Positions 5,885-9,006 of a stretch of DNA of 14,337 nt are shown here, one piece after another. The stretch's first letter is position 1, and every line of letters begins with the position of its first letter. The notes beneath the pieces are model-generated. The model searched no databases, was not told where the DNA came from, and was given only the letters and a program-made list of their open reading frames with translations. The position numbers and the translations under genes are program-made. The DNA is from a virus. The stretch lies in the UHGV virus genome UHGV-0078064; one strand, 5' to 3'.

Positions 5885-6349
5885 CTATCGACGGCACTGC
5901 TGCCAGATAACACCACCGGGGAAACATTCCATCATGATGGCCGTGCGGACATAGGAAGCCAGTTCATCCATCGCTTTCTTGTCTGCTGCCATTTGCTTTG
6001 TGACATCCAGCGCCGCACATTCAGCAGCGTTTTTCAGCGCGTTTTCGATCAACGTTTCAATGTTGGTATCAACACCAGGTTTAACTTTGAACTTATCGGC
6101 ACTGACGGTTACCTTGTTCTGCGCTGGCTCATCACGCTGGATACCAAGGCTGATGTTGTAGATATTGGTCACCGGCTGAGGTGTTTCGATTGCCGCTGCG
6201 TGGATAGCACCATTTGCGATAGCGGCGTCCTTGATGAATGACACTCCATTGCGAATAAGTTCGAAGGAGACGGTGTCACGAATGCGCTGGTCCAGCTCGT
6301 CGATTGCCTTTTGTGCAGCAGAGGTATCAATCTCAACGCCAAGCGTCAT
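5885..6349 (-). CDS. Hypothetical protein, cos-proximal late-strand accessory gene
   Basis: 154-aa ORF (MTLGVEIDTSAAQKAIDELDQRIRDTVSFELIRNG...) with ATG start, 12 nt downstream of the preceding gene's stop, ending 55-60 nt before cosN. No family recognised from memory. Occupies the position of lambda's post-bor ORFs but does not resemble them by size or order. Confidence 0.6.
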   Translation of the reverse strand: MTLGVEIDTSAAQKAIDELDQRIRDTVSFELIRNGVSFIKDAAIANGAIHAAAIETPQPVTNIYNISLGIQRDEPAQNKVTVSADKFKVKPGVDTNIETLIENALKNAAECAALDVTKQMAADKKAMDELASYVRTAIMMECFPGGVIWQQCRR

Positions 6350-6361
6350 CGAAGCGCAATA

Positions 6362-6613
6362 TTACTGCTCACCAAAACGCGTATTGACCAGGTGTTCAAC
6401 GGCAAATTTCTGCCCTTCTGATGTCAGAAAGGTAAAGTGATTTTCTTTCTGGTATTCAGTTGCTGTGTGTCTGGTTTCAGCAAAACCAAGCTCGCGCAAT
6501 TCGGCTGTGCCAGATTTAGAAGGCAGATCACCAGACAGCAACGCGCCACGGAAAAACAGCGCATAAAGCACTTCATTAGCAGCGCCAGATAGCGTAATGA
6601 TTTTGTTACTCAT
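6362..6613 (-). CDS. Hypothetical small protein, cos-proximal late-strand accessory gene
   Basis: 83 aa from the ATG at 6611-6613 (MSNKIITLSGAANEVLYALFFRGALLSGDL...), with AAGGAAA SD about 6 nt upstream. The ORF track's 96-aa version starts at a TTG at 6652 with no SD. No family recognised. Confidence 0.6.
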   Translation of the reverse strand: MSNKIITLSGAANEVLYALFFRGALLSGDLPSKSGTAELRELGFAETRHTATEYQKENHFTFLTSEGQKFAVEHLVNTRFGEQ

Positions 6614-6632
6614 GGAATATTTCCTTTTAGGC

Positions 6633-6686
6633 GTGAGCCTGTCGCACGGCAAAGCCGCCGAAAGTTAACGGTTTGCCCAGGCTCAC
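6633..6686. repeat. Perfect 9-bp inverted repeat GTGAGCCTG / CAGGCTCAC with a 36-bp spacer that contains a nested GGCAAA/TTTGCC pair
   Basis: Read directly: arms at 6633-6641 and 6678-6686, nested complementary hexamers at 6648-6653 and 6672-6677, GTTAAC palindrome in the centre. Lies 20-73 nt upstream of the 83-aa gene start. Confidence 0.7.
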
Positions 6687-6724
6687 AGCTGAAAGACTTT
6701 CTACGATGTGCGCGTGCGATGCGC

Positions 6725-6749
6725 ATAAAAAAGCCGCGTGATGGCGGCT
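6725..6749 (-). terminator. Candidate rho-independent terminator (minus strand)
   Basis: Minus-strand RNA: AGCCGC-CAUCAC-GCGGCU (6-bp GC-rich stem, 6-nt loop) followed by UUUUUAU. The + strand tail is weaker (ACUGUUUG). Confidence 0.55.
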
Positions 6750-6878
6750 ACTGTTTGAATATCAGGGTGTTGTTTCGTCTTAACCCTGGTTAATGTAGGC
6801 ATTCAGCCCGTCGGTGGTGGGACACTGGCGCACTTAATAAAGAGTACTGGCTGATTACCTCAGAATAAGGAATCAAAA

Positions 6879-7139
6879 ATGTCAGAAGGTTTTGGTTTAA
6901 AAGAAAAGGTTGAGCAGTTAGAAAAAGAATTAGCCGTACAAAAAATAGCAAATCAGCTTGCTTTTGGAGCACTAATTAAAGCAGTTAATGAGCTGTACCC
7001 GAACAAAGATTTATATGATGGGTTGACAAAATTTGTCCAGGAAAAACTTGATCCTGAACGTGTTAAAAACATCCCTAATCTTCACGAGGCCTTTCTAGAA
7101 GCTGCGAAAATACTGAGGACTGACGCATCTCCTGAATAA
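6879..7139 (+). CDS. Hypothetical protein encoded on the opposite strand, AT-rich (moron-like)
   Basis: 86-aa ORF (MSEGFGLKEKVEQLEKELAVQKIANQLAFGALIKAVNELYPNKDLYDGL...), with AAGGA SD 7 nt upstream of the ATG. Conspicuously AT-rich relative to flanking phage genes. It is the only convincing + strand gene in the window and sits where lambda has bor (also opposite strand), but the product is not Bor-like and has no lipoprotein signal. Confidence 0.6.
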   Translation: MSEGFGLKEKVEQLEKELAVQKIANQLAFGALIKAVNELYPNKDLYDGLTKFVQEKLDPERVKNIPNLHEAFLEAAKILRTDASPE

Positions 7140-7233
7140 TTTTATCAACAAAGGCAGTTGTGTCCTCTTGCTTTTCATTCACAATGCATGTGACTGCCTT
7201 TTCTAAAGCTGTAATTCGTTCTTCAAGTGTCAT
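7075..7233 (-). CDS. Possible small ORF (52 aa) convergent with and overlapping the 3' end of the + strand gene
   Basis: ATG at 7231-7233 (MTLEERITALEKAVTCIVNEKQEDTTAFVDKIIQEMRQSSVFSQLLERPRED) preceded by AGGAG with 5-nt spacing. Overlaps the + gene by 65 bp. The ORF track extends it to a TTG at 7257. Coding status uncertain. Confidence 0.3.
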   Translation of the reverse strand: MTLEERITALEKAVTCIVNEKQEDTTAFVDKIIQEMRQSSVFSQLLERPRED

Positions 7234-7292
7234 ACCCACTCCTGTCATTGGCTTCAAAATGATAAACCCCGCATTTGCAAGTCCTATTTATA

Positions 7293-7331
7293 CCCCGCAG
7301 GGGATAAAAACCATATTATCCGCTTGCGGGG
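7293..7331. repeat. Imperfect palindrome CCCCGCAGGGGATAA-(8 nt)-TTATCCGCTTGCGGGG
   Basis: Read directly: GGATAA/TTATCC (6 bp) and CCCCGC/GCGGGG (6 bp) arms separated by a small internal loop. No clean U-tract on either strand. On the minus strand it abuts a TATAAAT element. Confidence 0.6.
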
Positions 7332-7373
7332 ATATCCATTATCAAGCCCACCAGCAGGTGAGCTTTGGAATGG

Positions 7374-7631
7374 TTACTTCGCTTTTGCTTCCGCTCGCTT
7401 ACGCCGGCGCTCTTCTTTCCTCTCGGCTTTTGCCATGTCCATGAATGCCTGCATGATCGAGTTCCGCATCATGTAGCTGACAAAGTGATGGTTGACACAG
7501 CCGTTGAGGCGCAGCTGCTCGCCAAACTCATCCACCGAGGCCAATGCTTCCATCATGCCCTTCTCGCCTTTCATGAACTCTGAGAAGTCGCGCCCCGCTC
7601 TGGAGGCGCATTCTATTATTCGGGTGCTCAT
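7374..7631 (-). CDS. Hypothetical small protein with a lysine/arginine-rich C-terminal tail, coupled to the upstream KilA-N gene
   Basis: 85 aa from the ATG at 7629-7631 (MSTRIIECASRAGRDFSEFMKGEKGMMEALASVDEFGEQL...AKAERKEERRRKRAEAKAK). Its start is 2 nt after the KilA-N gene stop (TGAtcATG). The ORF track's 105-aa version overlaps the upstream gene. Confidence 0.55.
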   Translation of the reverse strand: MSTRIIECASRAGRDFSEFMKGEKGMMEALASVDEFGEQLRLNGCVNHHFVSYMMRNSIMQAFMDMAKAERKEERRRKRAEAKAK

Positions 7632-7633
7632 GA

Positions 7634-8362
7634 TCAGGCCGCCGCATAGAGCAATTTCATCTGCCCTTTCACCGGGAATGCCGACATGCAACGCGCTTCG
7701 AAATCACGATAATCAGAGCACCCATTGGCAATGCTGGTAACGGCAATGATCTGTCGCTCAACCAATGTCAGCGCGTCAGGTTTAAGGTGCTGATGGATTT
7801 TGTCTCCCGCAGCCAGCCGTCTTTTAACCTCTGCATATACTTCTGGTGGTAATACCGGGCCATATACCCACTTGGCACTGATCATCCCAAATAGTGCGGG
7901 GCGACGACCTGGTCGATGACGGGGCAGCCCTGACATTTTGAACATCGCAGAATAAAACGGATCGCTAAACCTCTTTTCCCATGGCTGAGATTTATCCAGA
8001 AGGAAAATAGCCTTTATTCTTTCATCGTCGATATGATGAACGGAACCCTGAATGATTGCGTCAATTTGCTCATCACACCAGATCTCAAAATCTACAGAAA
8101 GCCATCGAGCAAATCTGACCGCCAGTTTTGGGTGAAGCCATGTTCCGCCGCCACGGTCTTTGCGAGCGCGGCTGGTTTTTACATATGTGATATTCCCATA
8201 TCTACTCTTTAACGCCTCGATGTAACGGACAGTCTCAGGAAGCCTAAGCCACTGAGCCGGCTCCTTGTTGAACTTGTCAGCTGCCGCAGTCGCGTCAAAC
8301 CAGCCATCGTCAGAAAAACGCATGGGATGGCCTTCGAAATCAATCGGGATGATATTGGACAT
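7634..8362 (-). CDS. KilA-N domain protein (N-terminal KilA-N/APSES-type DNA-binding domain; C-terminal half unassigned)
   Basis: 243 aa from the ATG at 8360-8362 (MSNIIPIDFEGHPMRFSDDGWFDATAAADKFNKEPAQWLRLPETVRYIEAL...GGGTWLHPKLAVRFARWLSVDFEIW), a pattern typical of KilA-N domains. AAGG SD about 9 nt upstream. The ORF track's 267-aa version begins at a GTG with no SD. Confidence 0.7.
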   Translation of the reverse strand: MSNIIPIDFEGHPMRFSDDGWFDATAAADKFNKEPAQWLRLPETVRYIEALKSRYGNITYVKTSRARKDRGGGTWLHPKLAVRFARWLSVDFEIWCDEQIDAIIQGSVHHIDDERIKAIFLLDKSQPWEKRFSDPFYSAMFKMSGLPRHRPGRRPALFGMISAKWVYGPVLPPEVYAEVKRRLAAGDKIHQHLKPDALTLVERQIIAVTSIANGCSDYRDFEARCMSAFPVKGQMKLLYAAA

Positions 8363-8512
8363 CGTATTTACCTTTTTGGTGATATGAGCCAGTTCTCGCA
8401 GACATGGACAGCCCAAGAGCGGCACGATGTAAGCCACCGTCCTGTCTCTGTCTCATATCCCGAAAAGCTCTTGGTTGATATGCGCACGAGAATGCGCGTT
8501 TACTGCGGACAT

Positions 8513-8535
8513 AAAAAAGCCCCGCATCGCGAGGC
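8513..8535 (-). terminator. Candidate rho-independent terminator downstream of Rz
   Basis: Minus-strand RNA: GCCUCGC-GAU-GCGGGGC (7-bp stem with one G.U pair) followed by UUUUUU. Lies about 35 nt past the Rz stop. Confidence 0.6.
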
Positions 8536-8568
8536 TCATTAAATGGACTTTGTGATTTGCAAAAAAAA

Positions 8569-9006
8569 TTATTTCAGGCACTGAGTCCTGATGTACTCCT
8601 GCAGGTAGTTAACCTGCGCGGTTATCCTGTCGATTCCACTTCGGAGACGGTAATAATTGAGTTCAGCATCTGCTGTAAGTCTTGGGCTTTCTCCATCGCC
8701 CATGCCGCTGGCTCCGGTCGTTGACTTTGCACAGGTGGCGGCGACTTGCAGGCGCTTACGCCCAGCAGAAACATCAGCACGGAGACTTTCGATAGTCGCG
8801 TTAGCATCAGCAAGCTCCTTTGTATATCTGGCATCGAGTTCTGCTACATCACGTTGACGCTTCTGCATGTCAGCAATAGTGGATGCGGCTTTGTCGCGCT
8901 GTTCTTTGTAGGCGATTGCATTATCACGGTAATGATTAACAGCCCATGACAGGCAGACGATGATGCAGATAACCAGAGCGGAGATAATCGCGGTGACTCT
9001 GCTCAT
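8569..9006 (-). CDS. Rz: Spanin, inner-membrane subunit (i-spanin) Rz
   Basis: 145 aa; the N-terminus [31 protein letters not shown] matches lambda Rz as recalled. Start overlaps the R stop (ATGA). Confidence 0.92.
8622..8807 (-). CDS. Rz1: Spanin, outer-membrane lipoprotein subunit (o-spanin) Rz1, embedded in the +1 frame of Rz
   Basis: 61 aa from the ATG at 8805-8807: [20 protein letters not shown] (signal peptide with VSAC lipobox) followed by a proline-rich segment [13 protein letters not shown]. Entirely embedded in Rz, the lambda architecture. Confidence 0.8.

Follow-up and report, generated by a model that had tools for sequence, protein, structure and literature searches.

The virus genome UHGV-0078064 was analysed as one stretch of 14,337 nucleotides (nt), hereafter the window. 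On its minus strand, just upstream of an open reading frame (ORF) of 83 amino acids (aa), it carries an element that we predict from comparative sequence analysis to be a doubly pseudoknotted messenger RNA leader of about 105-130 nt, encoded on the gene-sense strand. A nested inverted repeat at positions 6633-6686, to which an earlier note on this DNA had drawn attention, forms its central stem. The element recurs in hundreds of temperate phages and prophages of enteric bacteria (E. coli, Klebsiella, Enterobacter, Citrobacter, Salmonella, Pantoea and Serratia), and is apparently an undescribed structured RNA family of temperate enterobacterial phages. Probably, it is a portable leader RNA acting in cis, which these phages use to mask the ribosome-binding site (RBS) of accessory ('moron') genes located within the late operon or at its end.

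Architecture and covariation of the leader RNA

The perfect 9-bp inverted repeat (GTGAGCCTG at 6633-6641 and CAGGCTCAC at 6678-6686) and the inner pair GGCAAA (6648-6653)/TTTGCC (6672-6677) are present where the earlier note had placed them. The repeat lies 20-73 nt upstream of the start codon of the 83-aa ORF, an ATG at 6613 on the minus strand, and is adjoined upstream by a minus-strand intrinsic-terminator-like site (stem 6749-6732 followed by a T-run), as had also been claimed. The central GTTAAC palindrome (6664-6669) exists as well, but the importance given to it does not hold, since it varies among homologues (GATAAC, GATTAC, GCTAAC, GTAAAC, GTTAGC, GTTACC) and is incidental. Likewise, 6633-6686 correctly bounds the repeat but not the whole element, which reaches from about 6725 to 6619. 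Because a perfect 9-bp inverted repeat with a spacing of up to 60 nt is expected about three times per window by chance (14337 x 60 / 4^9), the reality of the repeat rests on comparative evidence. Folding of the minus-strand leader and a search for the repeat in related phages had been proposed as checks: the RNA of 6600-6760 folds with a z-score of -3.2 compared with shuffled sequences, the repeat arms forming stem P1 with P2 inside it, and copies of the element with 95-100% identity occur where the phage context is unrelated. Of the two functions considered in the earlier note, the structured 5' leader is thereby supported and extended: the repeat corresponds to the stems P1 and P2 of a conserved RNA, whose basal helix includes the Shine-Dalgarno (SD) sequence.

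In the predicted fold (Table 1), the helices P1a (7 bp), P1 (9 bp) and P2 (9-10 bp) form a coaxial stack of about 25 bp, interrupted by an asymmetric internal loop. Within P1a, the basal helix, the SD AAAGG is paired with a UCUUU further upstream. A first pseudoknot (PK1) connects the loop of the 5' hairpin P0 with the 3' bulge between P2 and P1. In a second one (PK2), the linker immediately preceding the anti-SD pairs with the P2 apical loop, in the 3' part of the latter. In the main subfamily, the sequence of P1 is invariant beyond what pairing requires.

Every helix shows compensatory changes across some 200 copies from Enterobacterales phages and prophages. The pattern that served to gather the main set of copies fixes P1, TTTCAG and two bases of the bulge; in IMG/VR, scanning with a pattern returned at least 134 copies on at least 120 contigs, with at least 70 distinct cores. 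Among 107 distinct canonical copies, 97.1% of the cells pair, compared with 93.9% after shuffling (a value of 97.1% was reached in 0 of 500 shuffles) and at most 52.7% when slid. For 39 diverse copies, aligned with a covariance model, the corresponding values are 94.0%, 83.7% and at most 46.4%, and 27 of the 33 pairs are doubly changed, including eight of nine in P1 and all six in PK1. PK1 is 99.5% paired in the canonical copies, with double changes in three of six pairs, and 94% paired in the diverse ones; neither pseudoknot was part of the covariance model used for alignment. The lower part of P2 is doubly changed in 4-5 of 6 pairs. In the diverse copies the P1a helices are 96-99% paired and display double changes from AU to GC; the basal helix covaries from CAG/CUA to CGG/CCA and from AG/CU to GG/CC, the latter in the second copy in the window, and is extended to a continuous 14 bp in copy L114. 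As determined by RNAalifold on a plain MAFFT alignment, without structural input, P0, P1 and the lower part of P2 are recovered.

The pseudoknots themselves vary in sequence and keep their complementarity. Among the pattern-found matches listed, PK1 reads UCGCAC/GUGCGA in at least 96 cases, UCGUAC/GUACGA in at least 12 and UCGCAU/AUGCGA in at least 9, with a few wobble variants; divergent copies carry UCUCAC/GUGAGA, UCACAC/GUGUGA, UUCUCG/CGAGAA, CGCUC/GAGCG, CGCCC/GGGCG, GUGCC/GGCAC or UGCCC/GGGCA. PK2 was scored by a duplex search in each sequence; column-wise counting on the MAFFT alignment was dropped because the register of the loop shifts between subtypes. A PK2 duplex of 5-9 bp is found at a constant position in 39 of the 39 diverse copies, in 13 complementary sequence variants, among them CGAGAG/CUCUCG, CGAUAAC/GUUAUCG, CCACAGAG/CUCUGUGG, CCAAGAGC/GCUCUUGG and CGUCGA/UCGACG. 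Compensatory changes in independent lineages, as generally expected of a structured cis-regulatory RNA, are present here.

The same holds for a constant orientation and position relative to the ORF. In every annotated record examined the element lies on the gene strand; in all copies the ATG follows P1 (..CUCAC) by 17-20 nt, and the element ends 5-8 nt before the start codon. G.U pairs outnumber A.C combinations by 51 to 23. These features indicate, at the level of sequence, that the element is read as RNA from the gene strand. The alignment also places the SD within a conserved covarying helix: in a partition function restricted to nested pairs, its mean unpaired probability is predicted to be 0.25 over the 39 copies and 0.13 in the window copy adjoining the 83-aa ORF (copy 1).

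Table 1. Predicted elements of the two leader RNA copies in the window and their adjoining features.
Feature	Position	Strand	Sequence or detail	Evidence
Copy 1, intrinsic terminator	6726..6749	minus	stem-loop 6749-6732, T-run 6731-6726	terminator scan; hairpin in minimum free energy (MFE) fold
Copy 1, P0 hairpin	6709..6725	minus	UGCGC-AUCGCAC-GCGCA	de novo prediction; stem covaries, e.g. UGCGU/ACGCA
Copy 1, PK1 5' strand	6719-6714	minus	UCGCAC, P0 loop	complementary to 3' bulge
Copy 1, linker (PK2 5' strand)	6696..6701	minus	GAAAGU	duplex with P2 apical loop
Copy 1, anti-SD (P1a 5' strand)	6689..6696	minus	UCUUUCAG	pairs AAAGG and CU in MFE fold
Copy 1, P1 5' strand	6678..6686	minus	GUGAGCCUG	one arm of the 9-bp repeat
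Copy 1, P2 hairpin	6648..6677	minus	5' strand GGCAAACCG 6677-6669; 3' strand CGG-C-UUUGCC 6657-6648	covariation
Copy 1, PK2 3' strand	6665-6660	minus	ACUUUC, in P2 apical loop	pairs linker GAAAGU
Copy 1, six-nucleotide 3' bulge (PK1 3' strand)	6642..6647	minus	GUGCGA	pairs P0 loop UCGCAC
Copy 1, P1 3' strand	6633..6641	minus	CAGGCUCAC	other arm of the 9-bp repeat
Copy 1, P1a 3' strand with SD	6619..6632	minus	..CUAAAAGG.., AAAGG 6627-6623, then spacer to ATG 6613	fold and covariation
Copy 1, cargo gene (phi80 gp66 / N15 gp59-like)	5885..6613	minus	242 codons	translation; PF09327 Phage_Tail_Tip in C-terminal part
Copy 2, whole RNA (divergent)	8368..8498	minus		covariance model, 29.6 bits, E 3.4e-5
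Copy 2, P0	8498-8494/8485-8481	minus
Copy 2, P1	8456-8448/8392-8384	minus
Copy 2, P2	8447-8439/8409-8400	minus
Copy 2, SD	~8375-8371	minus
Copy 2, PK1	8492-8487 with 8398-8393	minus	UUCUCG with CGAGAA
Copy 2, PK2	8474-8467 with 8420-8413	minus	CCAAGAGC with GCUCUUGG
Copy 2, upstream terminator	8513..8537	minus	GAGCCUCGCGAUGCGGGGC + UUUUUU
Copy 2, cargo gene (KilA-N + P63C protein)	7634..8362	minus	242 aa	KilA-N 1.2e-22, P63C 7.8e-11

Distribution, mosaicism and cargo genes

In a BLAST comparison of 6350-6900 with phage records, the relatives mEp213 and phi80 match over the whole stretch; HK639, mEp390, Fraca, Fostie, Salmonella phage FSL SP-016 and the 'Aeromonas' phage AsXd-1 match only over about 105-120 nt (window 6616-6738), at 95-97% identity. 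In mEp213, the element is 100% identical over 123 nt and the surrounding 531 nt are 87.9% identical. In annotated contexts, what immediately precedes it is usually a terminator or a late gene's stop codon, and the gene downstream differs; a hairpin with a T-run lies directly upstream in 118 of 171 homologous copies. Of the 5426 complete E. coli genomes, 129 carry the element, including laboratory strains with phi80 DNA. A scan with one genome per species identified about 50 species, all of them Enterobacterales after removal of chance hits and contaminated metagenome-assembled genomes (MAGs). Some records with non-enterobacterial hosts contain the element at 80-97% identity, namely AsXd-1 (L002), the Elizabethkingia phage EKP1 (L005) and MAGs assigned to Cellvibrionaceae and Collinsella (L143, L170); both MAG copies score in the model like an E. 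coli copy. The host assignments of these four may be wrong, or the assemblies contaminated. In EKP1 (719-1996 of L005), the element precedes a 60-aa ORF and then a tyrosine integrase, a context recalling satellites that integrate into prophage late genes (PMC10111431).

The 171 copies precede at least 48 types of gene, as classified by the 30 N-terminal residues. The cargos include KilA-N/P63C and Phage_Tail_Tip proteins, identified with Pfam, as well as Rha, glycosyltransferases and small ORFs, recognised by how the records annotate them or by their N-termini. Most numerous are members of a mosaic family akin to phi80 gp66 and N15 gp59 (for example in L002, L003, L011 and L034), in which interchangeable N-terminal modules and middle segments resembling the lambda J tail-tip fibre (PF09327) are followed by a common C-terminus, ..A(L/I)(K/R)PGGLLY... 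This mosaic protein could be a virion accessory or a decoy.

Two observations go beyond the earlier note: the 83-aa ORF is a nonsense-truncated part of a longer gene, and a second copy of the RNA precedes a KilA-N gene. The copy 1 cargo belongs to the gp66 family and is split by one in-frame TAA (6362-6364, codon 84) into the 83-aa ORF (6362-6613) and a 154-aa ORF (5885-6349). The window translation reads ..RFGEQ*YCASMTL.. compared with ..GEQQYCASMTL.. in phi80 gp66, which has Gln at the position of the ochre codon; the interrupted gene is either a pseudogene or in need of read-through. The divergent copy 2 (Table 1) is preceded by a terminator just after the stop codon of a 145-aa ORF (8569-9006), which from its position in the gene order is taken to be Rz. 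For the KilA-N gene behind it, ATG 8362 is the likely start rather than the mechanically listed GTG 8437, because this GTG lies inside the RNA and the SD and ATG directly follow the RNA.

Phages phi80 and HK639 carry two copies each, the second one before rha; in P22 (NC_002371), one copy occupies 39507-39634, with Rz on one side and rha on the other. Both in HK639 and in P22, late genes immediately precede the element, which lies within the late operon. For P22 rha (orf201), the GTG annotated as start codon (39575) falls inside the conserved RNA. Judging from the sequence, the true start is probably ATG 39645, which is preceded by AAGAAGG; translation from this ATG gives MNELIANHDFDFRQL.., matching other Rha N-termini. 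Several small coding sequences (CDSs) are likewise annotated across the element: PHI80_65 in phi80 (L014 623-922, on the opposite strand) and short 'hypothetical protein' CDSs in CharmingMan and LMessi (L011 1993-2109; L013 1979-2116). These are probably spurious calls over non-coding RNA. Wherever a genome has several copies (the window, phi80, HK639, and L114 with three), the PK1 and PK2 sequences always differ between them, a divergence that would avoid cross-pairing on one long late transcript.

Proposed mode of action and alternative explanations

We propose the following course of events. Transcription would enter from upstream, most likely as a Q-antiterminated late transcript that reads through the adjoining terminator. 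The RNA would fold into P0, P1a, P1 and P2, plus an optional P3, and the fold would be locked by contacts of the P0 loop with the P1/P2 bulge (PK1) and of the linker with the P2 apical loop (PK2). In the folded state, P1a would pair the SD AAAGG with the conserved UCUUU, and cargo translation would therefore be held down until the fold is opened or cut; the trigger for this release might be a ligand, a protein, RNase III, temperature or another signal. Folding would thus limit the access of ribosomes to cargo that could do harm or whose timing matters. Rha is an example; it is reported to block phage growth in IHF-deficient hosts (as cited in PMC4936722).

Several points weigh against this proposal. 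About 30% of the copies have no upstream terminator, and a weak or non-canonical promoter may lie inside or upstream of the element. P1 covariation rests on some 15 model-found divergent copies, because the collection pattern fixed P1, and the model alignment of the diverse copies was fitted to the nested structure and leans towards nested helices. The nearest-neighbour folding model ignores pseudoknots. P1a is short in the main subfamily (5+2 bp with internal loops) and is part of the MFE fold but absent from the centroid fold. The proposed control of translation, finally, is deduced from the pairing.

A specific version of the same explanation would make the leader a riboswitch, with a double-pseudoknot aptamer for a small molecule or ion whose binding stabilises P1/P1a and stops translation, or the converse. 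Like typical translational riboswitches, the element combines a compact pseudoknotted core that has invariant nucleotides with a closing helix of marginal stability in which the SD lies, and the invariance of P1 in the main subfamily beyond pairing needs points in the same direction. We nevertheless regard this version as unlikely: the cargo is heterogeneous (antirepressor-like, tail-tip-like, glycosyltransferase and small ORFs) and offers no coherent regulon pointing to a ligand, its 48 N-terminal types do not constitute a functionally coherent gene set, and few strictly conserved unpaired nucleotides are left in the divergent copies. Slightly less credence is due to a role in processing, according to which the P1a-P1-P2 helix is a site for RNase III (or another RNase) whose cleavage separates the message, frees the SD and leaves a stabilising structure behind. 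Such processing operates in the lambda N leader and at the inter-genic RNase III sites of T7. A quasi-continuous duplex of about 20 bp or more, as such a site demands, is available in the ~25-bp stack with its asymmetric internal loop between cistrons of the late transcript, and an insulator would suit a context-independent cassette in front of many cargos; however, RNase III sites require neither two covarying pseudoknots nor an invariant stem sequence. That the element is a new class of self-cleaving ribozyme, cleaving the late transcript inside the leader or immediately before it like a 'RiboJ'-type insulator, is very improbable. Several ribozyme classes are common in phage genomes, a double-pseudoknot fold of 105-130 nt has the size and complexity of small ribozymes, and the junction CUUUCAG and P1 are conserved more than pairing requires. 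Yet the Rfam matches up to E=10 include no ribozyme family (hammerhead, twister, twister-sister, pistol, hatchet, HDV-like), and the topology is unlike pistol, twister and HDV-like folds, for instance in having the pseudoknot partner on the 3' side of the internal loop. Taken more broadly, the idea of a mobile cassette that is either a new ligand-sensing riboswitch class or a self-cleaving ribozyme, and that licenses translation of antirepressor-type and other accessory genes only upon a host or phage signal, is one we hold tentatively and with more doubt than belief; the signal might be a nucleotide second messenger, one of immunity or the binding of an IHF/HU-type protein, the last hinted at by the old Rha/IHF genetics.

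Explanations outside RNA structure concern the DNA and the promoter. The earlier note had suggested an operator for a dimeric DNA-binding protein; alternatively, the element could be a 'linker' kept only as a homologous-recombination joint for module swapping. The outer arms do form a perfect palindrome, the island encodes a KilA-N protein, the mosaic breakpoints coincide with both ends of the element, and identity to mEp213 is 100% compared with 88% in the flanks. Contrary to a conserved half-site at fixed spacing, however, homologues differ in the distance between the arms, from 36 to more than 60 nt, and divergent copies change the arm sequences while keeping their complementarity (eight of nine P1 pairs doubly changed). 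The excess of G.U over A.C, the covariation of two pseudoknots with unpaired parts of hairpins and the fixed position relative to SD and ATG also contradict a purely DNA-level function, which we consider scarcely credible. Because the mosaic breakpoints lie at the element ends and the identity of the element exceeds that of its flanks, it is almost certainly, on this sequence evidence, also a homologous-recombination joint for cargo swapping, as a by-product; a recombination linker alone is insufficient because it would not maintain compensatory changes. A moron with an unconventional promoter in the conserved 5' part, which would let lysogens express the cargo without late transcription, is a further explanation that we judge to be quite remote. 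A terminator immediately upstream of the element and another after the cargo (HK639_13) represent the classical moron layout, the neighbouring ORFs in phi80 are labelled 'Fur-regulated', and some upstream contexts appear Fur-box-like by inspection. In agreement with the earlier note, by contrast, no sigma-70-like -35/-10 pair with 16-18 nt spacing is found on the minus strand of 6613-6880, and a sigma-70 scan of 6000-7700 gave nothing on the minus strand near the element. The alignment contains no conserved TAnnnT-type hexamer; candidate -10-like hexamers lack a conserved final T and vary among copies, and hand inspection for sigma-70, sigma-54, sigma-E, sigma-32 and sigma-28-like motifs revealed nothing consistent in conserved columns. 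The location of the HK639 and P22 copies within the late operon is equally at odds with this explanation. Separately, an upstream block, ..CCTGATAT(T/A)(C/A)A(A/G)ACAG.., precedes some copies (phi80 ~920-990; window 6750-6790, minus strand) and loosely resembles a Fur box; it may give a subset of the copies a conditional promoter.

Relation to known RNAs and significance

No match to Rfam 15 at the gathering threshold was obtained for the whole window or, at the element, for the P22, phi80 and CobraSix loci; at E<=10, the window and these loci gave only weak matches of 13-20 bits on terminators. No tRNA or tmRNA was found in the window. Literature searches by sequence string and keyword retrieved no description of the element, although it may have been published outside the searched literature. 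Homology to isrK and isrJ was rejected: the scores are 17.6 and 17.8 bits, compared with gathering thresholds of 50 and 37, the matches (6727-6800 and 8516-8597, minus strand) fall on the upstream terminators, which probably drive them, and Gifsy-1, the home of isrK/isrJ, has no copy of the element. The isrK-orf45-anrP arrangement of Gifsy-1 does offer a parallel, in that an antirepressor-type gene lies behind a terminator and the read-through RNA is translationally inactive, with its RBS sequestered (PMC4825925). The isrK leader is alike in its terminator and its antirepressor-type gene, but it is shorter and a different RNA. IsrK moreover acts in trans, whereas no trans partner was found here: CAGGCTCAC has 3 matches with at most one mismatch in the window, compared with 3.3 expected.

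Three further candidates were rejected. HK022 and HK639 possess put, which is also a structured cis-acting lambdoid RNA (HK639 carries both); put follows the early promoters closely and has RNA polymerase as its target, whereas the element is in the late region, and the putL-like feature of HK639 (34187-34312) is unrelated to it in sequence. A recombination hairpin like integron attC does not fit mosaic breakpoints that lie at the outer ends of the 105-nt element and not in the stem. A resemblance, by eye, of TGCCGT..ACAGGC to type I-F CRISPR repeats was judged to be chance because the repeat hairpin cannot form here.

Closer in kind are translational riboswitches and SD-sequestering leaders such as preQ1-II, SAM-II and the rpoS leader, which are likewise conserved pseudoknotted leaders whose closing helix takes in the SD, a short and constant distance away from the start codon. 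In contrast to these, the element has mutually unrelated cargos, is a mobile cassette of phage late operons, usually has a terminator before rather than after it, and shows no Rfam similarity. The lambda N leader and the T7 RNase III sites share a long imperfect hairpin with an asymmetric internal loop, placed between cistrons by the next RBS, but they are not known to have covarying pseudoknots or an invariant stem. Morons, as reportedly described by Juhala and colleagues in 2000, are accessory genes in late operons that are bracketed by terminators and possess their own sigma-70 promoter. The element marks the 5' boundary of such insertions, whereas its conserved 5' module is a predicted structured RNA without a recognisable promoter. 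An SD-occluding structured leader is known as a kind; this fold, its cassette-like mobility and its coupling to a terminator are new.

These results suggest that P22, phi80, HK639 and hundreds of prophages share an RNA fold that is unannotated in the records examined and absent from Rfam. The element offers a concrete way to test how morons inside late operons come to be expressed and restrained, and it may account for how rha is controlled, a gene whose product reportedly prevents phage growth when the host is deficient in IHF. It also constitutes the 5' joint at which accessory genes are swapped between phages, and hence bears on their mosaicism. For annotation, it prompts corrections of the P22 rha start, of the KilA-N start in the window and of spurious small ORFs over the element. 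As a compact, self-contained leader in front of at least 48 N-terminal gene types, it is in addition a candidate natural insulator part for engineering.

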